Part shown: in pieces, positions 5,938-48,429 of the stretch | Position numbering within the stretch: the stretch's first letter is position 1 | Layout: every line of letters starts with the position of its first letter | NCBI GenBank assembly: GCA_963717505.1 | Contig: OY970342.1 | Location: 704,001 to 768,000, forward strand | From: Candidatus Eiseniibacteriota bacterium | GTDB taxonomy: Bacteria; Eisenbacteria; RBG-16-71-46 | Length of the DNA: 64,000 bases | Direction of reading: 5' to 3' | Notes under the pieces: model-generated | What the model was told of the DNA's origin: nothing | Database searches by the model: none | The model's input: the letters and a program-made list of their open reading frames with translations, nothing else | Position numbers and translations under genes: made by a program

Positions 5938-5940
5938 CCC
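5851..5940 (+). repeat. Direct repeat copy 1 (ligD 3' end)
   Basis: 90 bp matching 6507-6596 with 12 mismatches (manual alignment). Confidence 0.9.
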
Positions 5941-6001
5941 GGGGTGGCGCGACGCACGAGATCTCGTGCCGATGTCAGCCTCCGCAGCGGCCGCACTACG
6001 C

Positions 6002-6214
6002 CTATGGTTTGATGGTCACCGTGTCCGGCAAGTCGACCTTTACATGGATATCGTTGTCCGACGGCGGGCTCGTCGTGCTGGTGTTCGTTGCTTCGGGCTT
6101 CTGAGCGCTTCTCGAGCACCCCCAGCTGGCCCAGGCAACCGATGCTGCCAAAGTGATCATCGCCAGAATCGAAACGAATCCCACGCTCTTGTTCCTGCTG
6201 CTCGCGTCCGACAT
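6002..6214 (-). CDS. Small hypothetical secreted protein or lipoprotein
   Basis: 70 aa with a hydrophobic N-region, SWGC and a Thr/Ser/Pro-rich tail; GGAGG upstream of the ATG. Confidence 0.5.
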   Translation of the reverse strand: MSDASSRNKSVGFVSILAMITLAASVAWASWGCSRSAQKPEATNTSTTSPPSDNDIHVKVDLPDTVTIKP

Positions 6215-6506
6215 GGTTCATCCTCCATCTTGAAGCAGTGAAGAGTTGGGAGCAGCCGGCGAGGCGAACACCTCGGACGCTCCAGATTGCAATATGACTT
6301 CGAATGGCATTCGCCAGCACGATCGTCGGGTTCGTCACAGCGCATCACTCCGTCATTTCGCACGTCGCGTGCCCACATCGCCAAGAGTTTCCTCGAGTTC
6401 CTATCATCAACGGAGAGAGTCGCTTCGGCGATCCGGCCCTCCGCCCTCCACGATCCCATTCCGATCGGGGTCTGCATTCCGTGGGCATAGCTTTGGAGAA
6501 TTTCCC

Positions 6507-6596
6507 AAGCACCCGCTGCTTGGCGTGTTCGGCAAGGGGATCGAGATGTCCGGAGCGATCGGGAAGATCGAGGGGGTGCTCGAGTCCCGCTAGCCC
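6507..6596 (+). repeat. Direct repeat copy 2 (orphan ligD 3' end)
   Basis: Encodes KHPLLGVFGKGIEMSGAIGKIEGVLESR* versus LigD KDPLLGVFGEGIEMSGAIGKMEGMLKSR*. Confidence 0.9.
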
Positions 6597-6629
6597 CTAC
6601 GGGGCGTTCCGGCGCTTCCCACCCTCCAA

Positions 6630-6638
6630 TGCTAGAAT
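6630..6638 (+). promoter_or_regulatory. Putative extended -10 promoter element for the amidase gene
   Basis: TGCTAGAAT lies 27 nt upstream of ATG 6666. Confidence 0.4.
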
Positions 6639-6665
6639 CGTTCACCGGATTGGGGAACAACGACA

Positions 6666-33213: not shown

Positions 33214-36192
33214 CTAGTCCGTGAGCGTGAGATCGATCCGGACTTTTCCGTTCTCGACCTTGCCCGGCTCGGGGTCCATCAGATAGATGCGGGCGTCGTC
33301 GACGCCCTGGGTCACCAACTGATCCTTGATCGTGAGGCCGCGCGCGTTGGCCAGCGACAGGAGATCGGCTTCGTCCACCGGCTGGAGCGCGGTCAGCGTG
33401 TCCTGGATCGCCGTATAGAGCCGCGGACTGTCGATCACCAGCTTCTTCGAGCCTTCCTTGAACTGAGGATGCTTGGGGTCGAGCTCGCCGGCCGGCATCT
33501 CGAACTTCTTCTTGAACTCGGCGAGCCCCTGCTTTTCGAAGCGCTCGGCGTAAAGGTCTTCGAGCAGGCGTGGAGAGTAGCCGACGCCCCCGCCGTACTT
33601 CTTGGGATCGGAGGCCAGCTTCTCCCCGGCCAGCGCCTCGAACTTCGCGTGCCGGATCGCGACTGCGTCCGCCTCGGCGTCCGAGCGTCCGCGCACTTCG
33701 AGGCTGAGCTGCGGGCGCTTGCCGAGGGCTTCCGCCAGCTTGGTCATCGACTCCTTCTGGTCTTCCGGCATCGCGCTGGCGCCGACCGGGAAGTCCACAT
33801 GACTCAGCTCGTCGGCGTCGCCCCCGCCGAACAGGCTGCCGAGCAGCGCGAACGGCGCGGTCGCGACCTTCTTGAGGAGACTCATGATGAAGTCCCAGAT
33901 CACCTTCCAGATGCCGAACTTGGGATCATCGAGGTCGCCCTCGACCGGCATGTCCAGGTTGATCTGACCGTTGCCATCTTTGAGGATTGCGAGCGCGAGT
34001 CCTACCGGCAGCTTGGTGGCCTCGGGACTCTCGACCTTCTCGCCCAGCTCGAATTGGTCGAGCAGGATCTTGTTCTCGCCGACCAGGTGCCGGCCCTCGA
34101 GCCGGTAGTTGAGATCGAGCGTCATCTTGCCCTTGTCGACTTCGCGGCCGAGGAACTGGCCGGTGTAGGGCGTCAGCACCGGCATGTTGAAACCGCTGAA
34201 GTCGACATCGAGATCGACGAACGTCCGCTCCGCGAGCGGATTGATCTCTCCGCGCACGCTGGCAGTACCGCTCGGCTGCATCTTGCCGTCGAGGACCACA
34301 CTGGCGCGCGACGCCGAGTCCGACGACAGCCCCTTCGCCGACCCCGCGATCTGCTCGATCCGGGCCGCGAAGGGCAGGATGAGCGAGAAATCGGCAAAGT
34401 CAGCCGAACCCTCGACGACGTCGATCGTGCCGATGCGGACCGGGATCGCCGAGGACTCGGTTGCGCTCTTGCGCATGGCGGCCAGCGCCTCGGACGGCTT
34501 CTGCGCGGCGACCACCGTGTCGGCCTGCAGCCCGAAGATCTCCTGGATGTTGGTGGTGCGATCCTTGTGGATCAGGATCTTGGCGTAGGGCTGGCTAAGT
34601 CGAACGCCGCCGACTCGAACGCGAGTCGGCGCGTAGTCGATCCCGCTCGCCGTCACCGACTTCCACGCCAGGAACCGGTCGTCGACGATGCGATCGCGCG
34701 CCAGGAACCCGCGGGATTCGACGACACCCTGGTAGCGCAGGTCCGGCTGATCCTTGCGCGCACCCTCCCGGAACTGGACTTTGCCTTTGGCGCCCAGCGT
34801 GCCGCTGACCAGTTGCAGCTTGGCAACCGGGTTCACGTAAGGCTGGAAGATCTTGAGCGGCAGATCCGACAGCATGACCTGGAGGTCGGCTGACGGCGGT
34901 TGCGCCACGGCTTTCCCCGTGGCTTCGAACTTCCCGGTTCCGGCGATGGTCACGTCGGTGGCCAGGTCGATGGAGGCACCCGGCTCGGAGCTGAGGTTGC
35001 GAAGCGTGGCGTTGGCCGGCGCCACCATGACCGCGAACGGCGGCGACACCGTACGATCCTCGAACGCGACTCCGAGATCGCGAACCGAGAATTCCTTCAG
35101 CTCGACCGTCCACGGCGCCACCGGCGCCACGCTGTCCGGGGGCGCGGCGGGCGCCGTTCCACTCGCAGGCGCCGCGGCCGACGCGGGCTTGGTCATCAGC
35201 GCCTGCCAATTGAGCGTCGTATCGGGCTCGAGCCAGGCGACCACGCGCGTTCCCGCCAGCAGCACGCGTTCGATGTTCACCGTCTGCTCCGGGTAGCGGA
35301 CCTGAATTCCGGTGACCCGCAGCGAATCGATGTGCAGAAGATCCGGCTCCTTCCCCGGGGCGCGCATCGTGAAACCGGTGAGGCTGAATCGGGCGTCGTT
35401 GATCCGCGACACGATGCTGTCCCCGCGCACGTCGGTTGCGTAGTCGATCCTGCAATCGGTGATGCCGTCCGTGACCTCGAAACCAAAGCGGCGCTTCGCG
35501 ATCTCCCAGAACTTCCGCAGCCCCGAATCGCTGACCTCGAGCACACCGGCCGAGTGCAAGGGATCGAAGGTCAGGTCCCCGTTCCACTGCCAGCGGCCGC
35601 CGCTGGGATCGGTGGCGACGATGCCGTAGCGACCTTCCTTGTCCGGGATCGTGGTGAAGTTCCTGAGCATGAGATCGATCGGCTCGAGCGTGCCGTCCTC
35701 GGGCTCGGCCGGCATCAGGTTGGTGACGCGCACGGACCCACGCGCGATCTCGAATTTGCCAAGGATCAGGCGCGGTGGCTTCGAGGGCGGCTGGCTGGCC
35801 GCGTAGTCGATCATGTCCGCAAAGTTGGGCCGGCCATCGGGCATCAGCCGAATGTGGGTCCTCGGACCCTCCAGCCGGAATTCCCGGAACGTCAGCGCCC
35901 AGCGCACCAGGCTCGAGAGTTGAAAGTCCGCGTGCATGCGATCGAACGCAACGAACGACGTGCCGTCGGCGTCCTCGAGGTCGAAACCCTCGAGCGTGAG
36001 CGACAGGAACAGCGGGTTGACGCGAACGCGGTCGAGCCGGACCTCGCGCTTGAGGGTCTCGCGAACCCCCTTGATGATCTGGCCGCGCACGATCCCGGGG
36101 AGCGCCAGGAATCCGAACAGCGAATAGACGACCAAGACCGCGAGCGGAATCCACACGCGCTTGCGGCGCAGCTGTTCGAGAACCGGGTTCAC
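33214..36192 (-). CDS. DUF748 (AsmA-like) domain protein
   Basis: N-terminal TM anchor; VRVNPLFLSL, LPVGLALAILKD.NG.I.LD.PVEGDLDDPKF, OmpA-like end LANARG; start at GTG 36192. Confidence 0.9.
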   Translation of the reverse strand: MNPVLEQLRRKRVWIPLAVLVVYSLFGFLALPGIVRGQIIKGVRETLKREVRLDRVRVNPLFLSLTLEGFDLEDADGTSFVAFDRMHADFQLSSLVRWALTFREFRLEGPRTHIRLMPDGRPNFADMIDYAASQPPSKPPRLILGKFEIARGSVRVTNLMPAEPEDGTLEPIDLMLRNFTTIPDKEGRYGIVATDPSGGRWQWNGDLTFDPLHSAGVLEVSDSGLRKFWEIAKRRFGFEVTDGITDCRIDYATDVRGDSIVSRINDARFSLTGFTMRAPGKEPDLLHIDSLRVTGIQVRYPEQTVNIERVLLAGTRVVAWLEPDTTLNWQALMTKPASAAAPASGTAPAAPPDSVAPVAPWTVELKEFSVRDLGVAFEDRTVSPPFAVMVAPANATLRNLSSEPGASIDLATDVTIAGTGKFEATGKAVAQPPSADLQVMLSDLPLKIFQPYVNPVAKLQLVSGTLGAKGKVQFREGARKDQPDLRYQGVVESRGFLARDRIVDDRFLAWKSVTASGIDYAPTRVRVGGVRLSQPYAKILIHKDRTTNIQEIFGLQADTVVAAQKPSEALAAMRKSATESSAIPVRIGTIDVVEGSADFADFSLILPFAARIEQIAGSAKGLSSDSASRASVVLDGKMQPSGTASVRGEINPLAERTFVDLDVDFSGFNMPVLTPYTGQFLGREVDKGKMTLDLNYRLEGRHLVGENKILLDQFELGEKVESPEATKLPVGLALAILKDGNGQINLDMPVEGDLDDPKFGIWKVIWDFIMSLLKKVATAPFALLGSLFGGGDADELSHVDFPVGASAMPEDQKESMTKLAEALGKRPQLSLEVRGRSDAEADAVAIRHAKFEALAGEKLASDPKKYGGGVGYSPRLLEDLYAERFEKQGLAEFKKKFEMPAGELDPKHPQFKEGSKKLVIDSPRLYTAIQDTLTALQPVDEADLLSLANARGLTIKDQLVTQGVDDARIYLMDPEPGKVENGKVRIDLTLTD

Positions 36193-36197
36193 GACTC

Positions 36198-39100
36198 TTA
36201 CTCCGCGACGATCTGAACCAATGCCGGCGGGGAGATCCCTTGTTGTTGGGCCGCCTTCGCCACCTTGACCGGGACGATTTTGGCGAATGCCTCGTGAAAG
36301 CGCCAGCGCTTCCACTCGCCCTCGAGCCGGACGGTCACATGCTCGCCCTCGATCCGAATCGGGAGCCCGCGGCGGAGGGCCTCGGCGGCGACGAACGGGC
36401 CCAGGTCCCGCGTCCACTCCTCGGGGGTGATCGCCGACAGGACATTGCCCGCGTATTGCGCGGGATCGAGCCGAACCAGGGGATCGAACACGAACACGCG
36501 GCCGGCCGCCGCCCCGGACATGAAGAACTTTCCGGAATAGGGCCGCGGCTTGAGCGAAAGCTCGCCGCGGCCGTCGGGCTTGCGCAGGCCCATGACCACG
36601 TGCAGCGAGTTGTCGCCGCCCGCCATCAGGTACTCGAACGCGTACTCGTTGGGCGTGCCGAAGTGGATCGACTTGAAGCCGGGCGCCGGCGTGCGCCCGT
36701 CCTCGAGCAGGACCTTGTTCTGCCCGGCCACTGCGAACCGCGAGCCCGAATCCCAGACGTTGATCGTTCCGCCGTGCGCGGCGTACATGCAGGTGTTGAG
36801 CGAGTCCTGGAGCACGAACAGGTAGCCGGAATCGGCCTTGAAGCCGAGATGGCTCTGACCCTGGCCGAACACATAGACGCGCGCGCCTTCGAGCAGGGCG
36901 CCGATGAAGTCGCCGAATTCGCGGCCGTACAGTTCGAGCGTGACCCCGCGCGCGGCCGTGCCGTCGGGCTGTGCCAGGTTGGTGCCGACGTAGCGCGGAC
37001 CGCCGATGAATCCGTACCCGACGATATTGCGCCACCCCAGTCGCACGGCCTCCGACGTGATGCGCGACGCCGAGTCGAGCCAGAACGACTCGCTGCGAAA
37101 GCCGGCATAGTCGACGACCAGGACATCGCGCAGCGGATCGCGGGGCGCGGCCAGGTCGTCTCGGGTTTCGAGCGTGAGCCGCGCCCACCGGCCGGTCGGC
37201 GACGGCGCCGCCAACGCTTCGTGAATCGGCGCGACCTGATCGAGCAGCCGCACGACGCCGCCTTCAGGCGAGCGGTCGCCGGCACGACCGCCGTCGGTCA
37301 GGTACTCCATGCTCGACAGCGACTTGCCACCGAGGTCGGTGAGCGCGAGCCGCGTGCGGAGTGTGGCGAGCACGCGCAGGACCAACGCCGTGCTCGTGTC
37401 GGAACCTTGCGCCCACTCCGGCAGCGCGTGCTCGACCAGATAGCGGTAGTCCTCGAAATTCAGCGTGCGCTGGCGATCGAGGGTACCGATCACCAGATCG
37501 CGCGCAGCACCGGTCAGCTCCTGATCGGGCCCCCAGGGCCGCGACGCCGGTGCCGCACCCGATTCGACCGCACGCACCTCGGCGGTCATACCCTCGAGCC
37601 AGCGCAGGACCAGGCTCTTCCACTCCGCCGACGCGCGGCCGACCGCCTGCTCGAGCACCACTTCGAAATCCACCTTGGCGCCGCCGCGCTCGACCTCGAT
37701 CGGCTCCCCGAACCGGTTGGTCAGGTCCATGCCCTGGGATCCCGGAGCCGTGAACGCCTCGAACACGCCGCCGAAGTCGCGTCGCTTGGGCGTGCCGCCG
37801 GGACGCATGTTGAAGCGCAGGTCGTGGCCACCGTCGTGGAGCACACCCTGGGCGTGCAGCGTGCGCAGCATGGCGTCGGCGATCTTGGCTTCGCTGCCGT
37901 TGGCCACGGCGTGGACTCCGCCCGGCGTGGTGTCGCGACTGACCACGATCTCGTGCGGGCGCAGGAACTTGATGTCCATGTTCTCGCGGAAGCCGACGAC
38001 CCGGAGCGGCCCGGACGCGGTCCAGCGCCGGCGCGACTCGACGATCGTGAACTTGTACGGGCCGGTCGGCGTCAGCTGGACGTAGTTGGTCATCAGCAGC
38101 GTGAACTTGCGCCGTCGTTCATCGTCCATGTTGGCCAGATCGAAGCCGGTGATCGGCGAAATGATCTGGCTCGCCTCTTCGGTCGACAGACCCAGCACGC
38201 GCCGCGTGAAGTCCACGAGATAGGCGGCGTACTCGGTGTCGGTCAGCGCCTTGCGCTCGTACACCGAGTCGCCGTGGTAGTCGGCGTGGCCCTCGCCCAT
38301 CGTCGGGTCGGCGTGGACGTAGCCGAACTCCATGAGGAACGGGGCGGTCGAGTCGACGGCCACCTGCTCGCCGTTGTGCATGAGCAGGACGTTGTACGCC
38401 TTGAACGGATGGGCGCCCGCGGGATTCCCGCGGCCTTCGGCGTCGATCGCCGGCGAGTTGGTCGGATAGCGGTGGTGCATACCCCAGACGTGCGCGTGGA
38501 GCGCCGGCGTGCGGGACGTTCGCCCTTTGAGCGTGACCGGCAGGCCGCCGGGCGCACCCGGGTATGCGATCCAGAAGCGGTCGAAGTCGAAGTACTCGGG
38601 AATCGTGTGCGTCCAGCCCGAGATCTTGATCGCGCCGAGATCCTCGCCCATCGAGACCACGAAGCCCCGGCGTTTGGCGGCGTACTTGCCCGCCGGTGGA
38701 TGCGATCCCGCCGGCGCGTGGGTCCGGTAGTAGCGCGAGTCCAGCAGGTGCGCGAGTGCGGTGAAGTACTCCTCGCGCACGTCAGCGACGAACCGATCCA
38801 GGCGCTCGAGATTGGCGTCCCCGGGGGGCGCCGGCCGGTCCGGATGGTCGAGCGCATGGGCGAGCGCGAAGTCGGAGAGATCCCCGTAGAGCGTCCGACG
38901 CTGGAGCCAGTGCTCGCTCGCGATCAATTGCCGGCCGTAACGCTGGAGCACCTCGAGCCGAAGCTCGACGAACAGTAGATGGAAGTCGCCCGGGTTCTCG
39001 CGCAGCTCGGCCAGACGCCAGCCGTCGTCCTTCTGGTACTGCGGCCGCACCGGCACCTTGAATTCCGGCAGACGCGCCAGGACCTGATCGAGCGGCAGCT

Positions 39101-42100
39101 CGGCGCCTGCGGCGTCGAAGAACCGGCAACCGGCGAAATGCCCGACCATCTGGCGGATGGTGTCCGCGCGATCGGGTCCGATGGTGTTGACGATCACGCA
39201 GGTCTTCTCGCGCACCGGTTCCGGCGCGAAGCCTGCGAAATCGATGCCGCCGCCGCGGTTGTTGCCGCCATTGAAGCTGAGCCGCGCCGACTCCCAGATC
39301 GCGTGCACGGTCACCGGCTCGGACACCGCCAGCGACCCGACGCGGCACGAATCCCGCTCGACCGTGACCGGGTCCACGGCCGGAGCCGGGCGCGACATCC
39401 GGGCCGGCACGCCGTCGGCGGCCGCGGCGTCGAGCGCACGCAGCGAACCTGCCGGTCCCGCGTGCTTCGGCATCACCAGCAGGTCGGTGCGGCCGCGCAG
39501 TTTGCGAATGTCGTCCAGCAGGCGGTCGGCGTGAACCACCCGGCCCTGCGCGTCGAGCGCGCCGCTCTCACGATTGAACGCGTCGAGCAGCACCGCCAGC
39601 TTGACCAGGTTCATCACCGTCCAATTGCGGAACCGCCGGCGCATCAGATCGCGGTCGTTCTGGATCGTCAGCTCGGGCTTGGTCGTGATGCCGCCGCGCG
39701 GGCAGTCGAGGTGACAATTGCCGCACTGATTGCAGCCGAAGGCCACGGCCTTGCCGATGCTGGCTTCGACCAGCGCGTCGGCGCCGGCGATCAGCACCTT
39801 GATCATGTCCAGCTCGCCGCGCAGCCCGCCCGACGCCAGGAGCCGCGTGCCACCGCCCGCGCCGAACGGAACGCCATTCAGGTCGCGGATCGACTTCAGC
39901 TCGCCGCTGCCGGCCAGGTCGACCTTCTCGCCGACCAGGGCATGATGCGTGTGCAGGATGGTGCGGAAGATGTCGGGCCACCCGACGTGTGAGCTGTCGG
40001 CGTGGTAGTTGCCGGAACCGCCGAGCCCGGAGTCGACCAGCAGGTAGTCGACCACGAAGTTGGACCACATGCCGGCGGCGACGTAGCGCGTGTAGTTGGA
40101 GCCGGTGATCTTGATGCCGCAATGGTTGTGGTAGAGCAGCCACAACCAGACTTCGGCCGGCATGTCCTCGATCGAATAGATGTCGTGCTTGGGATCGGGC
40201 GAGAGCGCGTCGGTGCCGATCGGAATGTTGCGCGCCTTGCTCACCGTGCTGGTGACTTTGGCTCCGGACAGACGCCCGCCCTTGCCCGGCTTGGCGCCCT
40301 GATTGATCTTGATCTCGACGTCGCGCACGCGGCGCAAGTCGGCGGCGTGCATGCCGAAGTGTCCGCTCGCCGCCTGCATGCTCTCCCAGGCCATCGCTTC
40401 GGGCGCGAGCCGAATCGGTCCGCCTTCGCCCGACGAGGTCATGGTCAGTCCGGTGTTGCCCTCGATGCGCGCGATCAGGAAATCCTCGGACGCCGCCCCC
40501 AGCGAAATGCTGGCGTGACACACCGGGCCGTGCCAGATGGGCTCTCGGAAGCCGAAGCCGGAGAGCACCAGGCCGCCGCGCGGCTCGCGCCGCAGCGTGA
40601 CCAACCCGTCCTTCGAGGCGCGCGCGACCGTGACCCCGTGCCCGCCGTGCCCGCGCGCCGAAAGTTCCGTCGAGCGCTCGGCGCCCTCGACATCGCGGGC
40701 GATCATCCATAGCGATTCGCCGCCGTTCAGCACGTTTTCGAGCGCATGGCCCGCCGCGATCTGGACTTCAAAACCTCCGGTGCGATCGGCGGTGAAACTC
40801 AGCAGAGCCGGACCGTCGGCGCGGCCCCGCAACTCGACCGTGGCGCCGGAGGCCACGGCTCCCGGCCGCTGGAATCCACGCGGCACCGCCATCGACACGT
40901 AATCGAGCAGCTTGGGATCGCGCGCCAGACGCGCCAGCGACCACTCGAGCGATTCGCGGGACAGCTTGATGCCGATCCCGTCGAGCGACATCGCGCCCAT
41001 GTCGCTGTCGATCAGGAAGTCGCCGGCCTCGGGCATCTGGCCGGCGGCCATGCGGTAGATGACCTCGAGGAAGTCCGCGCTCAGATTGCGATTCGTGTTC
41101 TCCAAATGGAAGTTGGCGTTGTCGTGGGCCAGGATCTTCGCGGCGGCGACCAGCGGCAGATCCGGGCGGCGCTCGCCGAGTAACGACGAGACTTTGAACC
41201 GCTCTCGCATGGCACTCGGCACCGGCTCGGCGGCGATGCGTGCCGCGTTCAACCCGGCGTTCAGGCCTCCGAACTCGGGCGTCGCCAGGGCGTCGACTTC
41301 GCGAATCCAGTCCTCGGTCATGGTGATCGCCATGGTGTTGCCGGAGGTCTTCTGGATGTCGTCGATCCCCATGCACGACAGGAAGTCGAGGATGCTGTGT
41401 TGCCAGCAAGTCAGCGTGTTAACCGCCAGCTCGCGCAGCTCGGGCAGACCGACCCCGCGCAAGGCGGTGCGCGCCACTTCGAGATTCGCGCCGTGGTGAA
41501 CCTCGATCAGCTCGGGCAGGAGCGCGATCTCGGCGACGTGGGTCATGGCCCCGCCGTTGGCGCCAAGCAGGACCGCCTCGTACACCGTGGCCGCCGAAGC
41601 CTGGGTGTCGGTATCGCCACCGGCCGATACCAGCTGGACGCGCGCCCTGAGAAACCGGGCCTTGAGGAACGCGTCGATGCGCGGGATCAGCCGATACGAC
41701 TTCTCGCGCCCCGAGTGAATGTGCAGCATGGCCACACCGTCCAGGCGCGCCGTGGTCTCGAGCGCCGGCCAGAATTCGGGATTCGCCGCGTCGTAACGCA
41801 TGAAGACCGACACCAGGAGTCCGGCATTCCGCTCGATCAGGGCGGCGACGTGGCGGGCGACGTCCTTGCTCCACGCGATCTCGACGATGCGCGACGCGGT
41901 CACCCATTCGCGCAGGGTTGCCGCCGCCTCCCCCGAGCCCGAGCTCAGTGCGTCCACGTGTCGCGGCTCGAGGCGAGGCATGACGTGCGTGGCATTCGGG
42001 CGCAGGGCTGCCGCGTGCTCCACGCAGCGGTCCGCCTCGATCACGACCAGCGAGCGTGTCTGCAGATCCGCCGCCGGGTTCGCGGCGGCGATCGCCTCGA

Positions 42101-42719
42101 GATAACCGCGCTCGAGCGAGATGTCGACCTTGAACGGCAGCGGTCCGACGATCATCGGCATGTCCAGACGAATCGCACGAACCGGAATGCTCGTCCGACC
42201 CTTGGCCGTGCGGAACAGGACCGCCGGATGCCGACGGGCGATGTCCCACGCGGTCGAGAATTCCTCGCGTAGACCGTCGTTCGCGGGGTGGGTGATCGCC
42301 GCGTGCGAGAAGTACGAGCGCCAGAAGCCATGGTGCCAGGCGGCGCCAATCGTCAGCGGCTCGTGACGGTGGCGTTCCTTGAGCACCTTGTCGAGATCGA
42401 ACGCGGTGATCTCGAGCTGCGGGATCTCGCGCGAGACCCGGGAGAAGTGCGAAAGGAAGAGCCGGCCGCGCCGGCCGCGCCCCAGACGCCAGAACGAGGC
42501 TTCGTCGACCCCGGCTCGCTCGAGCAGGAACGACAGCATGCGCCGCCCGCGATCGCGATCGCGCACGGCCGCGCTGTCAGGATCGACCACCAGCGTGAGC
42601 AGGTCCTCCCACATCGCGATCTGCCGGTGGAACGAACCCGGACGATCCGCCGGATCGGTCGACGGTGCCGGCCCGTGCGACGGTGCTCCGGGCGCGGGGC
42701 GTTCGAGGGTCGCGCTCAT
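36198..42719 (-). CDS. gltB: Glutamate synthase-like polyprotein, 2173 aa, with rearranged domain order (degenerate barrel, FMN, GATase-II, GXGXG)
   Basis: FMN domain (SSGEGG, QAASGHFG, EIKINQGAKPGKGG, SPDPKHDIYSIED, ASGGLR, GRTDLL); GATase-II (ERDSC, HHRYPTN, AHPF, HNGE, TDTE); C-terminal GXGXG-type region. ATGA overlap with the upstream gene and GGAG RBS. Confidence 0.85.
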   Translation of the reverse strand: MSATLERPAPGAPSHGPAPSTDPADRPGSFHRQIAMWEDLLTLVVDPDSAAVRDRDRGRRMLSFLLERAGVDEASFWRLGRGRRGRLFLSHFSRVSREIPQLEITAFDLDKVLKERHRHEPLTIGAAWHHGFWRSYFSHAAITHPANDGLREEFSTAWDIARRHPAVLFRTAKGRTSIPVRAIRLDMPMIVGPLPFKVDISLERGYLEAIAAANPAADLQTRSLVVIEADRCVEHAAALRPNATHVMPRLEPRHVDALSSGSGEAAATLREWVTASRIVEIAWSKDVARHVAALIERNAGLLVSVFMRYDAANPEFWPALETTARLDGVAMLHIHSGREKSYRLIPRIDAFLKARFLRARVQLVSAGGDTDTQASAATVYEAVLLGANGGAMTHVAEIALLPELIEVHHGANLEVARTALRGVGLPELRELAVNTLTCWQHSILDFLSCMGIDDIQKTSGNTMAITMTEDWIREVDALATPEFGGLNAGLNAARIAAEPVPSAMRERFKVSSLLGERRPDLPLVAAAKILAHDNANFHLENTNRNLSADFLEVIYRMAAGQMPEAGDFLIDSDMGAMSLDGIGIKLSRESLEWSLARLARDPKLLDYVSMAVPRGFQRPGAVASGATVELRGRADGPALLSFTADRTGGFEVQIAAGHALENVLNGGESLWMIARDVEGAERSTELSARGHGGHGVTVARASKDGLVTLRREPRGGLVLSGFGFREPIWHGPVCHASISLGAASEDFLIARIEGNTGLTMTSSGEGGPIRLAPEAMAWESMQAASGHFGMHAADLRRVRDVEIKINQGAKPGKGGRLSGAKVTSTVSKARNIPIGTDALSPDPKHDIYSIEDMPAEVWLWLLYHNHCGIKITGSNYTRYVAAGMWSNFVVDYLLVDSGLGGSGNYHADSSHVGWPDIFRTILHTHHALVGEKVDLAGSGELKSIRDLNGVPFGAGGGTRLLASGGLRGELDMIKVLIAGADALVEASIGKAVAFGCNQCGNCHLDCPRGGITTKPELTIQNDRDLMRRRFRNWTVMNLVKLAVLLDAFNRESGALDAQGRVVHADRLLDDIRKLRGRTDLLVMPKHAGPAGSLRALDAAAADGVPARMSRPAPAVDPVTVERDSCRVGSLAVSEPVTVHAIWESARLSFNGGNNRGGGIDFAGFAPEPVREKTCVIVNTIGPDRADTIRQMVGHFAGCRFFDAAGAELPLDQVLARLPEFKVPVRPQYQKDDGWRLAELRENPGDFHLLFVELRLEVLQRYGRQLIASEHWLQRRTLYGDLSDFALAHALDHPDRPAPPGDANLERLDRFVADVREEYFTALAHLLDSRYYRTHAPAGSHPPAGKYAAKRRGFVVSMGEDLGAIKISGWTHTIPEYFDFDRFWIAYPGAPGGLPVTLKGRTSRTPALHAHVWGMHHRYPTNSPAIDAEGRGNPAGAHPFKAYNVLLMHNGEQVAVDSTAPFLMEFGYVHADPTMGEGHADYHGDSVYERKALTDTEYAAYLVDFTRRVLGLSTEEASQIISPITGFDLANMDDERRRKFTLLMTNYVQLTPTGPYKFTIVESRRRWTASGPLRVVGFRENMDIKFLRPHEIVVSRDTTPGGVHAVANGSEAKIADAMLRTLHAQGVLHDGGHDLRFNMRPGGTPKRRDFGGVFEAFTAPGSQGMDLTNRFGEPIEVERGGAKVDFEVVLEQAVGRASAEWKSLVLRWLEGMTAEVRAVESGAAPASRPWGPDQELTGAARDLVIGTLDRQRTLNFEDYRYLVEHALPEWAQGSDTSTALVLRVLATLRTRLALTDLGGKSLSSMEYLTDGGRAGDRSPEGGVVRLLDQVAPIHEALAAPSPTGRWARLTLETRDDLAAPRDPLRDVLVVDYAGFRSESFWLDSASRITSEAVRLGWRNIVGYGFIGGPRYVGTNLAQPDGTAARGVTLELYGREFGDFIGALLEGARVYVFGQGQSHLGFKADSGYLFVLQDSLNTCMYAAHGGTINVWDSGSRFAVAGQNKVLLEDGRTPAPGFKSIHFGTPNEYAFEYLMAGGDNSLHVVMGLRKPDGRGELSLKPRPYSGKFFMSGAAAGRVFVFDPLVRLDPAQYAGNVLSAITPEEWTRDLGPFVAAEALRRGLPIRIEGEHVTVRLEGEWKRWRFHEAFAKIVPVKVAKAAQQQGISPPALVQIVAE

Positions 42720-45406
42720 CGCCGCTCCGCCGTCTCGAACGAATCGAGCGCCACGAACCAGGCCGGTGTCGGCGCTTCCATGACGCGCAGCGTCCGCCCG
42801 CCGTTCTGGTGGTTGTTCGGGCAAACCTCGACGCACGACCCGCAGCCAATGCACCGTTCCTGAGCGGTCTGGATCCACCGAGGATCCGCGCCCTCGAACT
42901 CGCGATTGGCGCTGGTGGGACAGACGGCGACACAAGCGCCGCAGTGGATGCAGGTGTCGGCCGGGCCGGCGTCGTTCTCGGAGCGCAAGACCAGGAAGCG
43001 CGGCACCCCCGGGAGTGCTGCCGGACTCCGTTTGATGTAGCCGCCCGGGCGCACGCCCAGGAAGTCGCGCGTGTATCCGGCCGAGCCCCGCACTGCCGCG
43101 ACCACGGCCGCGTGCCGGTTGCGGTCGTACGGACGCACGCGATTCGAAGCTGCTTGCATCTGGTCGTACATCGGCAGATGCGGAATGCCCGCCTGGCAGA
43201 CTTGCTCGCAATTGCCGCAGCGCATGCACAGGTCGAGCAGCGTGCTGCCGGTCGCCGGCACCGCGACGCCGCCGCGCATGGCTTCGCCGATGTGCGTGAG
43301 CATCTGGGGCAGGCGGATCTTCGATTCGTGGAAGATCGGGCAGACTGTGTTGCACTCGCCGCAGTTGACGCAGTGCAGCGCTCGATCCTCGGGCGTCTGG
43401 GCCGGTGATCCGGCCGGTGCGCCCGGGGCGATCGACAACAGCAGTGACTTCCCGCCACCTCCGGCCATCGGCGCCGGCGCGCGGAAGTCGGCGCCAACTA
43501 CCGCGGGTCCGCCACGCCCGCGGGCCGGGCCCGGGAGCACGCTCATTAGTCCGCGCACCGATTTCACCAGCCCGGAGAGCGCGGACTGAGCGTAGATCGC
43601 GCGCAGCAAGGAAACGCCGGGCGAGAAGGTCGATGCGACGACGGCGCCCAACGGCCCTTTGAGGCTCATGTCGACCAGCACGCCGCGATTCACGATGGCG
43701 TGGGGGTCGAGCGATCGCTTCGCCGCGCGGATCAATGCCGCGGGTCCGCGCCCGACCTTGGCGTCGAGCCACGCAGCCTGCCAGCGACCGAGCACGTACG
43801 GCTTGCCCTGGTGATGGTGCATCGCGAGGTCGACCAGCGTCGGCGCGATCATCAGGTCGGCGCCAAATGCACCCGAGCGATGGTCGGTGAGGTAGCCGGC
43901 GATGACCAGCGTCGATCCGTCGTGGACGTAGTAGACCTCGGCGTCCACCTCGCGTCCGACGTTGCGCGCGAGTTGGGCGGCGCGCGGAAGAAAACGCGGC
44001 ACCTCCGCCGCCGGCATCAGGATCTCCGCTGCGAGCAAACCGGGGCCGAGCCGCTTGGTCTGCATCGGCTTGAATCGCTCGGCGGCGAACCGAACGCTCT
44101 CTTCGCCGAGCAGCGCCGGCTGCCCTGGGCATGTCGGCAGCGCCGCGCCGAACGCCCGCGCCGCGGCTTGGTCCATGAAGTCGACGAACAAGTAAGCGCC
44201 GGCGTGATCGAGATCCGGGGCGGTCGCAGGCCCCAGCTCGCGCGGGCCGGTGATCGAGCGCCACGGCAACGACGCATCGCCCGAGAGAGCACCCAGGTGC
44301 TGGCGCCAGGTGCGCGCGTCCTCGTCGGCCCATACCGCACGCACGTGGTGCATGTGCGATCCGCTGAAGAACTTGATGTTGGCCGGTTTCTCCCCGGGCA
44401 ATTGGGTCACCCACTCCGCGGCGGCGAGGGCGTCTTGCTCACGCGCGAACGACAGGAGGAATGGATAGAGCGCCGGCCGCGGCTCGATGCGTACGGTGAG
44501 TCTCAGCAGCACGCCGTAGATGCCTTCACTGCCCGCGAGATCGTCGAGCGTCATGGGCTCGCAGCCTCGGTCGCGGAACCACGCGGCGACTTCGTGCCCG
44601 GCGAGAGTCCGGTGCGAGTGGCCTTCGACTACGTCGAATCGGCCGTCGTCGTGGAAGCGAACCTGGTCGCCCGAAGGCAGCAGCAGGTCAGCAGCGCGAA
44701 CGCTGTCCAGCGCGCGCCCACGCCCGTAGGCGTTGAGCCCGACACCGCCGGTCAGGAACCAGCCCGCGAGCGTGCCCCCCAGGTTCGAGGGATAGACGCC
44801 GAGCGCGAATCCCTGCTCGCCGAGTTGCTTGTGGATCGTGCGCATGCGCGCGCCGGCTCCGATGATGCAAACGCCAGCGGACGGATTGACCTCGATCCCG
44901 TCGAGACGCGACAGGTCGAGCGTCAGTCCTCCGTCGCTCGGCACCGAGCCGCCCATCGCGGTCGAAGCCGCTCCGCGCAGGGTGACCGGCACGCCCAGGT
45001 TGCGCGCCCAGCGCAGTGCCGCCTGGGTCTCGGGCGTGGTCACCGGCTGGAAGATCAGGTCCGGGACCGCGCGCGTCAGGCGTCGCGTGAACAGTCCCCC
45101 GAGGTAGACGTTCTGATCGCGGTCCGCCTCGCCACGCAGGAGTCCGTCAGTGACGATCCGCTCGCGCAGGGTTCTTGCTGATCCCGCGGCATCGGGCAGG
45201 TCGGCCAGGGCCTCGTGCAGCAGGCGCGCCAGCTCGCGCGTGCGCAGCGGCTCGGTGCGGTCGGCGTACGCCCGACCCTCGTCGAAGAAGAAGTTGAGGT
45301 CGGGGATCGAAGCGCGGACGACGGGGGCGCGCTGCTCGGGCGGAAGCGCGGCAAACGCCTCCGGCGACTGCCCTAAATGTCGATCGAGGAACGAGGCTTC
45401 GGACAT
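42716..45406 (-). CDS. FAD-binding (PCMH/VAO-type) oxidoreductase fused to four [4Fe-4S] motifs
   Basis: PDLIFQP, PVTLRGAASTAMGG, GTLAGW, GSEGIYG, KRSLDPHAIVN; CVNCGECNTVCP, CMRCGNCEQVC, CIHCGACVAVCP, CIGCGSCVEVCP. Start uncertain (45406 or 45478). Confidence 0.9.
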   Translation of the reverse strand: MSEASFLDRHLGQSPEAFAALPPEQRAPVVRASIPDLNFFFDEGRAYADRTEPLRTRELARLLHEALADLPDAAGSARTLRERIVTDGLLRGEADRDQNVYLGGLFTRRLTRAVPDLIFQPVTTPETQAALRWARNLGVPVTLRGAASTAMGGSVPSDGGLTLDLSRLDGIEVNPSAGVCIIGAGARMRTIHKQLGEQGFALGVYPSNLGGTLAGWFLTGGVGLNAYGRGRALDSVRAADLLLPSGDQVRFHDDGRFDVVEGHSHRTLAGHEVAAWFRDRGCEPMTLDDLAGSEGIYGVLLRLTVRIEPRPALYPFLLSFAREQDALAAAEWVTQLPGEKPANIKFFSGSHMHHVRAVWADEDARTWRQHLGALSGDASLPWRSITGPRELGPATAPDLDHAGAYLFVDFMDQAAARAFGAALPTCPGQPALLGEESVRFAAERFKPMQTKRLGPGLLAAEILMPAAEVPRFLPRAAQLARNVGREVDAEVYYVHDGSTLVIAGYLTDHRSGAFGADLMIAPTLVDLAMHHHQGKPYVLGRWQAAWLDAKVGRGPAALIRAAKRSLDPHAIVNRGVLVDMSLKGPLGAVVASTFSPGVSLLRAIYAQSALSGLVKSVRGLMSVLPGPARGRGGPAVVGADFRAPAPMAGGGGKSLLLSIAPGAPAGSPAQTPEDRALHCVNCGECNTVCPIFHESKIRLPQMLTHIGEAMRGGVAVPATGSTLLDLCMRCGNCEQVCQAGIPHLPMYDQMQAASNRVRPYDRNRHAAVVAAVRGSAGYTRDFLGVRPGGYIKRSPAALPGVPRFLVLRSENDAGPADTCIHCGACVAVCPTSANREFEGADPRWIQTAQERCIGCGSCVEVCPNNHQNGGRTLRVMEAPTPAWFVALDSFETAERR

Positions 45407-45480
45407 CCCGCGCGTGGGGAATGCGTGCAGCGCTCGGCGGCGTCGGGCCCCGCTCGCGCTGCCCGCGGACCATGGCACTG

Positions 45481-45548: not shown

Positions 45549-47474
45549 TCAGCGCAGCTCGGGCAAGCCCGCGTTCACCGAGCCACGCAGCCGGGTGAAG
45601 AACCGTACGCTCTCGAGCGCCAGGCGGGCCCCATCCAGGGGCAAGACCGGGATGTCCTTCGAGGCAAACGGCGGCGCGAACCCGACCGCGGATTGGGCTG
45701 CCGCCAGCGCGCGATCGTGAAAGCCGTGGCGGGCTTCGTACTGGCTGCGCAGGACCAGGCTCTGGCCGTAGAGAAGATGATGGGTCGCCACGTAGAGGTC
45801 CGCCCTGCCCCGCCACGGCCGCAGCCGAAGCGCGGGGTCCGCACAGGCGACGTAGCCACTGTCTGCGCGGAACTCGACGGCCAGGCCACATGGCGTGGCG
45901 ACAAAGCCGCGCAGCGGGGCCAAGTCGACTTCGCAGGTGGCGAAGATCCCGCGCGTCGGCGCGGCGTGACGAATGATGCCGGCCACCAGGCCGTCGTACG
46001 CCGCCCCCACTCCGGTGCCGCTCCGAGTCGCACGTTCGTGGCCTTCGGCTTCGGTGCGGACCAGCGCCATGAGTTCGGGATCGCGGCGCGCCAGTTCGCG
46101 GACGTACCACGGATGACGCAGCAGCTCGGTGCTGATCACGGTGACGTCAGGGCGTAGCCCTTCGACGATCTGCATGTACAAGGACGGCGAGATGACGTGG
46201 TCCCACAACGACGAGAAGACCACGGATCGCTCGGGCAGCGGCTCGAGCAGATCGCGGACCAGACCCTCGGAGAGCGTCAGGTCGCGTTCGTTGCAGCTTC
46301 GAAAGTGGAGCGCTCCATTGACCACGATCAAGGCGCCGGCCACCGCCAAGGTCACCCGCGCCCCGAACCGTTGGTGCAAGGCCGCCCAGCCCGCGGCGAC
46401 CAGGAGCCCCAACCCCATCAATGCAGGAAGCGCGTAGGGATCGACGTCGCGAATCCCGTACCCAACGAGATAGACCAGGCTGGTAGCCACGATCAGGCAT
46501 GCGAAGACCATCGCGCCGCGATCCCGGCGTGCGAGGAACGTTCCGCCGACGATGGCCACGGCCGCTCCCGCGAACGCGAGATCCCACGGTAGTCGAGAGA
46601 ACGCATACGCGGCTTGCAGCCGGGCATCCTCGGCGCTCGAGAACATCCACAGCTGATACTGCTTGCCGGTGACGTGCGCCATGAGCCGCCCGAAGTCGTG
46701 AGGATCTCCCCAGGACAATCGAGGCTCGGCCGAGGCTCGAAGAAGCAGCCAGACATAGGGCAGCAGACCCACGAGGAGCGCGGGAGCAACCGGCCAGAGA
46801 ATCCGCGCCAGACCCGGTCGCAGTCCGAAGCGAACGAACCACGCCGCCAGGAATGCCGGCGCCAGCACGACAACGGTGAGGTGGTTGGTGAAGGTGAGCC
46901 CGAGAATCAGGCCGAAAAGCATTCCCGACACGATCGTCGGTCGCTCGAGGTCGCGGAGCAGAGCCAGGCCGAGCACCGGCAGCAGGAACAACTGAAACGA
47001 GTACACCTCGAAGCCGTTGGCCTGTTGCCACACGGTCACGCTGGTCGCGATCAGGAGCGACGCGCAGCCGGCGTAGATCGCGCGCATGCTCTCCGACAGG
47101 GTGGAGCGCGAACCCGCGGGTGCTTTTTTGCGCGCGGCCGCCTTGGAATTTGGGCGAGCCCAAGTCGAGCCACCCAAACTCTCGAGAAAACGGTAGGCCA
47201 ACAGGACCAGCAGCGCCGCGCCGAGGGCGACCAGCACCGCGGCCAAGCCGTTCAGCACAACGATCGGCCGGCCGGGGACCACCGCCTGCACCGCATGGGC
47301 GAGAAGGATCAGGGTCGGGTAACCCGTGGGGTGCGCGATGCCCATCGTGCACGCCGCCGCCGCCAGCTCGCCGCGGTCGATGAAGCTGACGCTGCGCGAC
47401 ATCGTGCACAGATACAGCGTCGCGCAGATCGCGAAGACTCCCGCGGCGACCAGCACGCGAGCAGGAAATCGCAC
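45549..47474 (-). CDS. DUF2723 / TMEM260-like GT-C membrane glycosyltransferase
   Basis: D.GEL...GIAHPTGYP, EVYS, NH, SWGDP; many TM helices. Confidence 0.85.
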   Translation of the reverse strand: MRFPARVLVAAGVFAICATLYLCTMSRSVSFIDRGELAAAACTMGIAHPTGYPTLILLAHAVQAVVPGRPIVVLNGLAAVLVALGAALLVLLAYRFLESLGGSTWARPNSKAAARKKAPAGSRSTLSESMRAIYAGCASLLIATSVTVWQQANGFEVYSFQLFLLPVLGLALLRDLERPTIVSGMLFGLILGLTFTNHLTVVVLAPAFLAAWFVRFGLRPGLARILWPVAPALLVGLLPYVWLLLRASAEPRLSWGDPHDFGRLMAHVTGKQYQLWMFSSAEDARLQAAYAFSRLPWDLAFAGAAVAIVGGTFLARRDRGAMVFACLIVATSLVYLVGYGIRDVDPYALPALMGLGLLVAAGWAALHQRFGARVTLAVAGALIVVNGALHFRSCNERDLTLSEGLVRDLLEPLPERSVVFSSLWDHVISPSLYMQIVEGLRPDVTVISTELLRHPWYVRELARRDPELMALVRTEAEGHERATRSGTGVGAAYDGLVAGIIRHAAPTRGIFATCEVDLAPLRGFVATPCGLAVEFRADSGYVACADPALRLRPWRGRADLYVATHHLLYGQSLVLRSQYEARHGFHDRALAAAQSAVGFAPPFASKDIPVLPLDGARLALESVRFFTRLRGSVNAGLPELR

Positions 47475-47483
47475 GCGTCCTCC

Positions 47484-48341
47484 CTAGCGCCCGAGCAGCA
47501 TCCCGGTCACCCGCACGAACGAGAGAACGAATCCCACCACGGTCGTTGCGAGCAACACCAGCGCCAGAACCTGAACCCATAGGCTCTCTCGCCGTTCATG
47601 GCTCAGCGGCATGAACTGGGCGACCACCCATCCTGATGCGAATCCCCCGCCATGAGCCCAGTTGTCGACGCCTCTCATGAAGAAGCCGAACGCGAACAGG
47701 ATCAGCGCCCAGGTCCAGAGTTGGGTGGTCAGCATCTGCGAACCGGTCCGCCGGCCGTAGACGATGAGCGCCGCGAGCAGGCCGAAGATGCTGCCCGAAG
47801 CCCCGACCGAGCTCGATGCCAATACTCCCGGGCCCGTCATGAGATCCCCCGCGATGTTCGACACCAGGAAGCCGAATGCGCCGGCGAGCGAAAAGATGAC
47901 GAAGCCGCGCGCCGGGCCGAACGCTTCGTCGACTTGCGGCCCGAGATTCCGGATCCACATGACGTTGAAGAAGATGTGCAGAATGCCGCCGTGCAGGTAG
48001 ATGGCGGTGAGCAGCGTCCACCACCAGCCGAGCTCCCAGGCGATTCCCCCGGTCATCCCGAGCTGGTAGAGCGCGCGCGAGCCCGGCGAAAGGATCGAGA
48101 ACATCCCCGACGTCTGGAGAATCGCTTCGGGCTGGAGGATCAGGGCCGCGACGTAGAGGACGATGCACGTCATCACGATCAGCGGAACCATGTCGAGCCG
48201 GTTTCCGAACAGCTTCTGGATCGCGGGCGCGTAGCCGTAGAGCCCGGGGCGCCACGCGCCGCAAAACGGGCACTGCTCCTCGCTGACGCTGATCAGCTTC
48301 CCGCAGTTGGGGCAGATCATCGAGCCTTGGGTCTGGCGCAT
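47484..48341 (-). CDS. Rhomboid intramembrane serine protease with N-terminal zinc ribbon
   Basis: CPNC..CPFC; HGGILHIFFN; VGASG; NWAHGGG. Confidence 0.93.
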   Translation of the reverse strand: MRQTQGSMICPNCGKLISVSEEQCPFCGAWRPGLYGYAPAIQKLFGNRLDMVPLIVMTCIVLYVAALILQPEAILQTSGMFSILSPGSRALYQLGMTGGIAWELGWWWTLLTAIYLHGGILHIFFNVMWIRNLGPQVDEAFGPARGFVIFSLAGAFGFLVSNIAGDLMTGPGVLASSSVGASGSIFGLLAALIVYGRRTGSQMLTTQLWTWALILFAFGFFMRGVDNWAHGGGFASGWVVAQFMPLSHERRESLWVQVLALVLLATTVVGFVLSFVRVTGMLLGR

Positions 48342-48429
48342 CGGGGAAAGATACGCCAGGAGGCAGGTGGAGACGATCGGAGCCCCAGGTCTACGTCTAG
48401 CCGACATCCCCGTTAGCCGCGCCTAACGC

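Follow-up and report, generated by a model that had tools for sequence, protein, structure and literature searches.

How can an enzyme that relies on its first residue for catalysis work when that residue lies in the middle of a much longer chain? Class-II amidotransferases are textbook enzymes whose first residue is the catalyst, and the question is raised by a giant glutamate synthase-like gene in a 64,000-nucleotide stretch of DNA from a Candidatus Eiseniibacteriota bacterium (assembly GCA_963717505.1, contig OY970342.1, positions 704,001 to 768,000 of the forward strand; hereafter the window, whose own numbering we use). The gene encodes a protein of 2,173 residues in which the predicted catalytic cysteine, Cys1125, comes only after more than 1,100 residues of functional enzyme. 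We propose that the precursor is cut autocatalytically between Ser1124 and Cys1125, which would give a 1,124-residue synthase chain and a 1,049-residue glutaminase chain, and we put the probability of this reading at roughly 0.65. Cleavage at this bond as such, whether self-catalysed or made by another peptidase, we regard as quite probable.

The gene occupies positions 36198–42719 on the minus strand, as do all features of the window described below. Its ATG at 42719, located by translating 36198–44414 and scanning for start codons, overlaps the stop codon of the upstream gene (ATGA), and the consensus N-terminus of its homologues, which at full length have about 2,100–2,250 residues, coincides with this start. 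Third-position GC keeps a single phase from about 36100 to 42700; this indicates that the linker in the middle of the gene is coding and that the frame is continuous, with no frameshift. From the N-terminus, the protein is made up of a triosephosphate isomerase (TIM) barrel, a flavin mononucleotide (FMN)/iron–sulfur synthase barrel, a flexible linker, a class-II (N-terminal nucleophile, Ntn) amidotransferase and a GXGXG beta-helix. The Ala/Pro-rich, hypervariable linker spans residues 1085–1120 (39360–39467) and runs into V-E-R-D-S-C-R-V-G-S (residues 1120–1129), within which the junction E1121-R-D-S1124 / C1125 (39345–39359) is the proposed cleavage site and N-terminal nucleophile. A preliminary description of this locus had placed this sequence after an Ala/Pro-rich linker, with the cysteine codon at 39345–39347 and 1,049 residues from the cysteine to the C-terminus, and translation confirms each of these points.

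To judge the conservation of the site we used a word-indexed search with residues 1060–1700, which gave 140 proteins at E ≤ 0.001 among 7,999 scored; the best 120 were examined and are 62–100% identical to the query over these residues, with lengths mostly of 2,100–2,250 residues. The cysteine is kept in 120 of these 120. Column entropies, calculated for the 119 homologues that anchor uniquely, are zero for the Asp at position -2, for the cysteine itself and for the Arg at +1 and Val at +2 (each 119/119), and the Arg at +30 is likewise found in all 119. The remaining junction positions vary little: Ser in 118 and Ala in one at -1 (0.07 bits), His in 111 and Arg in eight at -3 (0.36 bits), and Glu in 97 and Asp in 22 at -4 (0.69 bits). 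From -40 to -5, by contrast with this block, entropy is 2.3–3.7 bits, with 2.5 bits at -5, so that the family block [ED]-[HR]-D-S-C-R-V-G-S sets in exactly four residues before the cysteine, directly after the variable linker. In the 114 of 120 homologues that have the preceding L-L-x-M-P motif, the linker from this motif to -4 measures 12–58 residues (median 17) and consists of 26% Ala and 16% Pro, with Glu and Gly also plentiful. The conservation of the Cys1125 site is thus far beyond chance, and the check suggested in the preliminary description, conservation of the cysteine and of ExDxC in homologues, turns out in its favour, and conservation sets in abruptly at -4. Such an onset, directly behind a spacer that is constrained neither in length nor in sequence, is what one expects of a processing junction.

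The internal position of the cysteine is a property of the family and extends over bacteria labelled as several phyla, among which the enzymes share 60–88% identity. A scan with one genome per species gave 63 loci, labelled in public records as Candidatus Eisenbacteria, Krumholzibacteriia, Thermoleophilia, Actinomycetes, Planctomycetota and a few others, and 57 of them hold the site. The FMN hallmark Q-G-A-K-P-G stands in the same open frame as the site at 50 of these 57; two further loci end at a contig edge and five are interrupted (L038, L057, L059, L062 and L068). All five come from metagenome-assembled genomes with isolate names starting with 'MFD', four have further frame breaks in the gene, and at L038 the stretch from the stop to the cysteine offers no start codon; these interruptions are probably assembly errors or indels and not real split genes. 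Natural split forms of the giant family itself were also sought and not found; the short matches in an exhaustive search turned out, when inspected, to come from contig ends or from frameshifted reads.

The residues that precede the cysteine are those of a known processed junction. In Escherichia coli GltB (NC_000913.3, b3212) the annotated N-terminus reads MLYDKSLERDNC, and the residues before the cysteine are ERDN. For a wider sample we took 29 canonical gltB loci from the phylum of an actinobacterial genome, G122, that also carries the giant gene; L097, from an unpublished genome, was excluded, and the site was readable in 26. In these 26 actinobacterial genes, positions -4 to -1 read EHDA in 12, ERDA in nine, and EHAA, GHDA, HHDS, EHDG and EKDA in one each, which amounts to Glu at -4 in 24/26, His, Arg or Lys at -3 in 26/26, and Asp at -2 in 25/26. 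The preliminary description had named a GltB propeptide ending in E-x-D-[AS]; E-[HR]-D-A in 21 of the 26, together with ERDN in E. coli, bears this out. The chains of glutamate synthase (GltS) in the PDB are numbered from Cys1, which is residue 22 in 7mfm, where precursor numbering is used. Judged by sequence, the giant protein carries a GltB-type pro-sequence junction, E-[HR]-D-x / C, at residue 1125.

The region that follows (residues 1125 to about 1679; 37683–39347) is predicted to be a class-II amidotransferase with large insertions. We folded residues 1100–1730 with AlphaFold2 (AF2), using an alignment of 35 giant and 55 split-family proteins (described below) to these residues, 91 sequences in all; the model has a mean predicted local distance difference test (pLDDT) score of 84 and a predicted template modelling score of 0.87, and its first 20 residues, the linker, have pLDDT 36–45. 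The top seven Foldseek matches are all GltS (E = 8e-9 to 3e-7), followed by GlmS, PurF, GFAT and EgtC. In VIA structure alignments, GltS chain 1ofe_A gives Z 22.7 with a root-mean-square deviation of 3.5 over 362 aligned residues, model residues 26–573 lying on chain residues 1–405; PurF 6ott_A (Z 17.6), GlmS 3ooj_E (Z 17.1), asparagine synthetases (ASNS Z 10.5; AsnB 1ct9_A Z 9.8) and EgtC (Z 14.5) follow, with model residue 26 opposite chain residue 1 in all of these but EgtC, where it is opposite residue 2. Throughout rows 1–37 of this comparison the alignments begin at model residue 26, opposite chain residue 1, 2 or 22 (the last in precursor numbering), and Ntn proteasome subunits, which are unrelated, score below Z 4. 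Model residue 26 is Cys1125, which makes Cys1125 the structural equivalent of the N-terminal nucleophile. The model therefore gives the region after Cys1125 the predicted four-layer alpha-beta-beta-alpha fold of class-II amidotransferases (Ntn; MEROPS C44), as the preliminary description had supposed, and sets this residue on Cys1 of GltS, PurF, GlmS and AsnB.

The motifs of the domain agree with the fold. They comprise R1155, H-H-R1417-Y-P-T-N, H-N1449-G1450-E and T-D1494-T-E, and the 91 giant and split sequences are invariant at C1125, H-H-R1417-Y-P-T, A-H-P-F, H-N1449-G1450 and T-D1494-T-E. In an hhalign alignment that is itself weak (E = 0.0025), these motifs pair with HQRFSTNT, AQPF, HNGEI and SDSS of E. 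coli GltB. From the PurF and GltS literature, we take the Arg of R-x-x-T, the Asn-Gly oxyanion pair of H-N-G and the Asp of [ST]-D-[ST] to be the residues of the glutamine site. Fold and motifs together point to Cys1125 as the predicted nucleophile of the amidotransferase. What is new is a GltB-type junction at an internal cysteine, and the equivalence of that internal cysteine to Cys1.

The origin of this arrangement can be followed through relatives in which the domain is a separate protein. Exhaustive phmmer comparison with a library of 1.8 billion proteins gave 216 matches at E ≤ 0.001 and links the giant protein, at about 30% identity and E of about 1e-12, to a split family whose members open with a short leader and then G-G-C-G-V-[IV]-G. 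These relatives score 25–28 bits with GATase_6 (cut-off 27) and match the NCBIfam models for glmS (E = 2.5e-10) and purF (E = 1.4e-8). The split family, of about 860 residues with GATase_6 and GXGXG domains, is large: of 8,000 candidates that were scored, 7,966 reach E ≤ 0.001. The cysteine was found in 119 of 120 examined, at position 31–40 in 110 of the 119, and is preceded by A-E-G-G. Its domain, 25–30% identical to that of the window, forms a polypeptide of its own, in which about 30–39 leader residues precede the junction A-E-G-G / C-G-V-I-G.

Two genomes of the window's phylum hold a four-gene split version of the whole system (L100:7957-15752 and L101:8025-13373). At L100, gene 1 (661 residues) encodes a FAD_binding_4/FAD-oxidase_C/Fer4 protein, gene 2 (561 residues) Fer4 with a degenerate Glu_synthase domain, gene 3 (598 residues) Fer4 with Glu_synthase, and gene 4 (864 residues) GATase_6 with GXGXG. 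By phmmer, this operon is colinear with the window: the flavoproteins match at E = 2e-56, and residues 131–476, 691–1019 and 1123–2150 of the giant protein are matched at E = 2e-10, 3e-27 and 5e-38, respectively. Because of this colinearity, the giant gene is taken to be a fusion of split genes 2, 3 and 4. The operon and the window's gene pair have the same catalytic motifs and the same type of flavoprotein partner, and the Fer4 domain that heads split gene 2 corresponds to the C-terminus of the window's flavoprotein (residues 841–889). On these comparisons, the split operon as the evolutionary source of the giant gene is also new.

Fusion with an internal cysteine has occurred more than in this one family. 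Fusions of about 2,880 residues, which include the flavoprotein, have an internal cysteine (residues 1836–1995) in 72/72, with the junction [GA]-Q-[ST]-N / C-G-V-A-A; those of about 2,530 residues, also including the flavoprotein, have it in 28/28 (residues 1651–1681), with the junction P-S-D / C-G-V-A-A. Both comprise the same domain set (FAD_binding_4, Fer4, Glu_synthase, GATase_6 and GXGXG) and are labelled Calditrichota, KSB1, Syntrophaceae and others; in all 100 of 100 a short conserved junction follows variable sequence. They differ from the giant protein in having the flavoprotein fused in and are distant from it, with about 30% identity in the beta-helix. The recurrence of the internal cysteine in two further fused families, seen in their alignments, is new as well. 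These fused relatives are proteins P0388–P0505, P0258, P0209 and P0192; in another protein, P0260 (3,152 residues), the amidotransferase comes first, with its cysteine near residue 78. The literature searched (main texts, largely from outside the subscription journals) describes neither the fused family nor a class-II nucleophile at an internal position.

In class-II amidotransferases and Ntn hydrolases, the free alpha-amino group of the nucleophile is the general base, and precursors process themselves at the nucleophile. Since the amino group of the cysteine has this role in the class, the giant precursor is most likely cut between Ser1124 and Cys1125. In the mechanism that we favour, the precursor would fold, the Cys1125 thiol would attack the carbonyl of Ser1124 in an N-to-S acyl shift, and the resulting thioester would be hydrolysed. 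The barrel/FMN/iron–sulfur chain of 1,124 residues and the glutaminase/beta-helix chain of 1,049 residues would then stay together at 1:1 in one complex. Ammonia, presumably derived from glutamine, would be handed on to a site at the FMN barrel where an imine forms, and electrons would reach the iron–sulfur clusters from the vanillyl-alcohol oxidase (VAO)-type flavoprotein encoded just upstream. The preconditions for Ntn autoproteolysis are all seen in the protein: its nucleophile is internal, its junction is conserved and its linker is flexible. The preliminary description had called the N-terminal half a giant propeptide; the term is loose, as this half is a synthase module that does work of its own and is not thrown away.

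Several observations weigh against self-cleavage of a glutaminase precursor. Residues 1125–1700 have no Pfam match, even at E ≤ 10; with the whole protein, the FMN domain is the sole match in Pfam and NCBIfam. Against PDB sequences, phmmer with the C-terminal half returns noise (best E 0.086), and the 91-sequence profile matches only FwdC (5t5i_C, E = 1.8e-4), in the beta-helix, leaving the amidotransferase unmatched. A hidden Markov model of the giant family has no match to E. coli GltB at E ≤ 10, and hhalign against 27 canonical GltB sequences is weak (E = 0.0025, probability 11.7%). Because sequence methods alone fail, the assignment of the amidotransferase rests on predicted structure and motifs. 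All class-II amidotransferases that we found described in the literature have at most a short pro-sequence, which leaves a leader of 1,124 residues without precedent; to our knowledge, known class-II pro-sequences reach about a hundred residues at most. Nor, as far as we know, has the mechanism of GltS pro-sequence removal been established experimentally, and a trans-acting peptidase could be responsible. The recurrent fusions with an internal cysteine are just as compatible with a clade-specific mechanism in which a free amino terminus is not required. Finally, no PF00120 glutamine synthetase was detected in the window's genome.

Some of these points are shared by a second explanation, which we consider rather unlikely: that no cleavage takes place, and that the domain either lacks glutaminase activity (using free ammonia or another amine, or gating a tunnel) or uses its internal cysteine with a different general base. 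An internal cysteine is tolerated in three fused families, which would be easy if a free terminus were unneeded, and position +1 is Arg in the giant protein where GltS and the other canonical enzymes have Gly. Against this, Arg also follows the cysteine of EgtC, an active Ntn hydrolase. Moreover, the class-II catalytic motifs, cysteine included, are all invariant, which would be hard to explain in a dead domain, and the block from -4 to -1 matches the processed GltB junction. The junctions of the other fused families (QSN / C and PSD / C) have no His, so that no common replacement base is evident, and in the split relatives the amidotransferase domain is a separate chain with a short leader.

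The supply of glutamine bears on the same choice. The window's genome is a single contig of 4.16 Mb with an estimated completeness of 86.7%; it contains no PF00310 match, the giant gene is its only match to PF01645 (Glu_synthase), and glutamate dehydrogenase is present. Among 121 sampled genomes of the phylum, PF00310 is found in none and the giant gene in 16; six more have weaker matches in open reading frames of about 870–1,090 residues, which we take to be of the split type, two of them (in G083 and G012) having been inspected. A PF00120 match is missing in 13 of the 16 carriers, compared with 5 of 105 non-carriers (5/104 without the unpublished genome G015), and this shortage, in the window's genome and in the carriers, speaks for the explanation without cleavage; it is an association and not a test, since related genomes are not independent. 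At five loci, on the other hand, a type III glutamine synthetase gene (glnN; GSIII_N, Gln-synt_C and Gln-synt_C-ter domains) separates the flavoprotein gene from the giant gene (L050, at 4257–6653, L006, L020, L021 and L055; the window has none at that place). Because this gene sits inside the operon, it supports glutamine as the substrate and argues against an inactive domain. The loss of glutaminase activity, offered as an alternative in the preliminary description, is thus disfavoured both by the invariant class-II motifs and by these five operons. We also considered the giant protein as a plain replacement of canonical glutamate synthase (glutamine:2-oxoglutarate aminotransferase, GOGAT) and rejected it, since PF00310 is found in 0/121 genomes yet only 16 carry the giant gene. 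Moreover, of five other carriers one, G122, possesses a canonical gltB alongside the giant gene.

If the bond is cut, a separate peptidase and not the protein itself might do so, which we think improbable. The mechanism by which GltS loses its pro-sequence is not known to have been settled, and the short conserved motif at the junction might just as well be recognized by a protease. In the window, a gene for a rhomboid protease is found two genes upstream, and a rhomboid homologue is found upstream at eight related loci; rhomboids, however, cut membrane-spanning segments. The junction differs from family to family (EHDS, AEGG, QSN, PSD) while the cysteine and the fold remain constant, and this argues for a chemistry centred on the cysteine. 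Moreover, the giant gene occurs in several phyla with the flavoprotein gene as its only constant neighbour, and a passage of PMC9140057 describes class-II pro-sequences of 'a few amino acids' as autocatalytically cleaved. Self-cleavage therefore remains the form of processing that we prefer.

A free N-terminal region could also arise if the C-terminal half were translated from its own start, for example Met1083 of L-L-V-M-P-K-H; the resulting leader of 42 residues would resemble those of the split family. This Met is kept in 110/114 homologues, and its distance from the cysteine, about 18–64 residues, brackets the split family's leaders of 30–39 residues. Yet Met1083 belongs to the conserved structural motif G-R-T-D-L-L-x-M-P, where it is flanked by invariant residues; it is replaced by Ile, Val, Phe or Leu in the other four of the 114, and L-P stands at this place in three sequences that do not match the strict motif. 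The 15 bases before its ATG (ACCGACCTGCTGGTG) contain no GGAGG-like ribosome-binding site, and a product begun at Met1083 would still need its leader removed at the cysteine. The Met of MSRPAP, farther along the linker, is not conserved, with any Met at all in only 11 of 114 linkers. The two internal starts named in the preliminary description as grounds for refuting cleavage, MSRPAP and MPKHAG, therefore fail, the first because its Met is unconserved and the second because its Met is a residue of the L-L-x-M-P motif, and we regard internal initiation as very improbable.

The N-terminal half has the features of a synthase module. We modelled it from 51 sequences (mean pLDDT 74); within the FMN barrel, residues 780–1020 have pLDDT of about 40–60, and only the N-terminal barrel of this model was used. 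That (beta/alpha)8 barrel (residues ~101–470; 41310–42419; pLDDT ~90) gives VIA Z scores of 18–19, tied between GltS chains and FMN alpha-hydroxyacid oxidases, and is matched by phmmer to L100 gene 2. We infer that it is the counterpart of the split operon's degenerate Glu_synthase gene and, by extension, of the central domain of GltS. The FMN/synthase barrel (residues ~731–1020; 39660–40529) matches Pfam PF01645 over residues 731–947 (E = 3.4e-45), with a second stretch seen, and is matched by L100 gene 3 over residues 691–1019. The NCBIfam GltB equivalog (PRK11750) scores 82.3 bits against a cut-off of 1,047, its match limited to residues 736–854. The iron–sulfur motif C-x2-C-x2-C-x3-C-P (residues 996–1007; 39699–39734) is invariant in the 51 sequences at C996, C999, C1002, C1006 and P1007. 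The FMN domain of the giant protein is closed by G-R-T-D-L-L (residues 1076–1081), part of G-R-T-D-L-L-x-M-P (residues 1076–1084; 39468–39494), whose residues are invariant or at least 90% conserved; presumably the same G-R-T-D-L-L closes the FMN domain of E. coli GltB. At the other end of the protein, the GXGXG beta-helix (residues ~1861–2150; 36270–37139) has a Pfam match of E = 0.02 with the window's sequence alone, a phmmer match to L100 gene 4 with an i-E of 2.3e-22, and the profile match to FwdC mentioned above.

The partner flavoprotein (920 residues; 42716–45478), the stop codon of whose gene overlaps the start of the giant gene, contains FAD_binding_4, FAD-oxidase_C and two 4Fe-4S dicluster domains by Pfam, and its gene lies upstream of the giant gene at all 47 of the 47 related loci that reach far enough. 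Its best NCBIfam matches are to GlcD/GlcE-type glycolate oxidase subunits and to the BagG/FevA2 oxygenase; these are weak (E = 1e-8 to 2e-11) and far below the cut-offs. Directly upstream of the flavoprotein gene (45549–48407) are a gene of the TMEM260-like O-mannosyltransferase type and the rhomboid protease gene, which includes a zinc ribbon. Downstream, a DUF748/AsmA-like gene of 992 residues (33214–36192) begins 6 bases past the stop of the giant gene and adjoins the giant gene at 0 of 63 related loci.

Comparison with GltS makes clear what has been kept and what has been rearranged. The giant protein has the same four kinds of domain as GltS/GltB (Azospirillum 1ea0/6s6s, Synechocystis 1ofd/1ofe/1llw, B. 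subtilis 7mfm, E. coli b3212); GltS is the best structural match of its amidotransferase, and the junction E-[HR]-D-x / C is common to both. A passage of PMC8097209 gives the limits of the GltS domains as 1–422 (glutaminase), 423–780 (central), 781–1202 (synthase) and 1203–1472 (beta-helix). In the giant protein this order is permuted, the amidotransferase having moved from first place to a position between the FMN barrel and the beta-helix, and the nucleophile is residue 1125 instead of lying within the first few dozen residues as in GltB. The giant protein has a four-Cys motif, CxxCxxCxxxCP, where GltS has a three-Cys 3Fe-4S motif. Its conserved neighbour is the FAD_binding_4/Fe-S flavoprotein, in place of the GltD or ferredoxin that serves GltS (the genome was not searched for gltD). 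The giant protein is a fused and rearranged relative of glutamate synthase, and its domain order and score both lie outside those of the GltB equivalog.

Precursors with an internal nucleophile are familiar among other Ntn hydrolases. Gamma-glutamyltranspeptidase, penicillin G acylase and glycosylasparaginase each mature from such a precursor into two chains that stay together, as we propose for the giant protein. In these enzymes, however, both chains contribute to a single Ntn domain, with Thr or Ser as the nucleophile, whereas the upstream chain of the giant protein would be a separate redox module of 1,124 residues and its nucleophile is a Cys. Class-II amidotransferases that carry a pro-sequence, such as B. 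subtilis PurF, have short leaders, unlike the giant protein.

We tentatively suggest that these proteins form a superfamily of flavoprotein-coupled, GltS-like enzymes that exist as split four-gene systems, as two-gene systems and as chains of 2,500–3,000 residues, and that the fused members may be 'polyproteins' that cleave themselves at an internal cysteine. The cut might serve as an assembly checkpoint, with the glutaminase switched on only after the redox module has folded and taken up its cofactors. Such enzymes could be the sole link between glutamine and glutamate where canonical GOGAT and, mostly, glutamine synthetase are missing, and could draw their electrons from a VAO-type flavoprotein and not from NAD(P)H or ferredoxin. 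If cleavage is confirmed, the giant protein would be the first class-II amidotransferase matured through an internal cut into two functional chains and, since it shares the junction motif, would offer a clean way to study the removal of GltS-type pro-sequences. It would further account for the ability of gene fusion to insert an Ntn domain at any point of a chain. As the enzyme is enriched in genomes without glutamine synthetase, its chemistry bears on the handling of nitrogen by uncultured soil and sediment bacteria.

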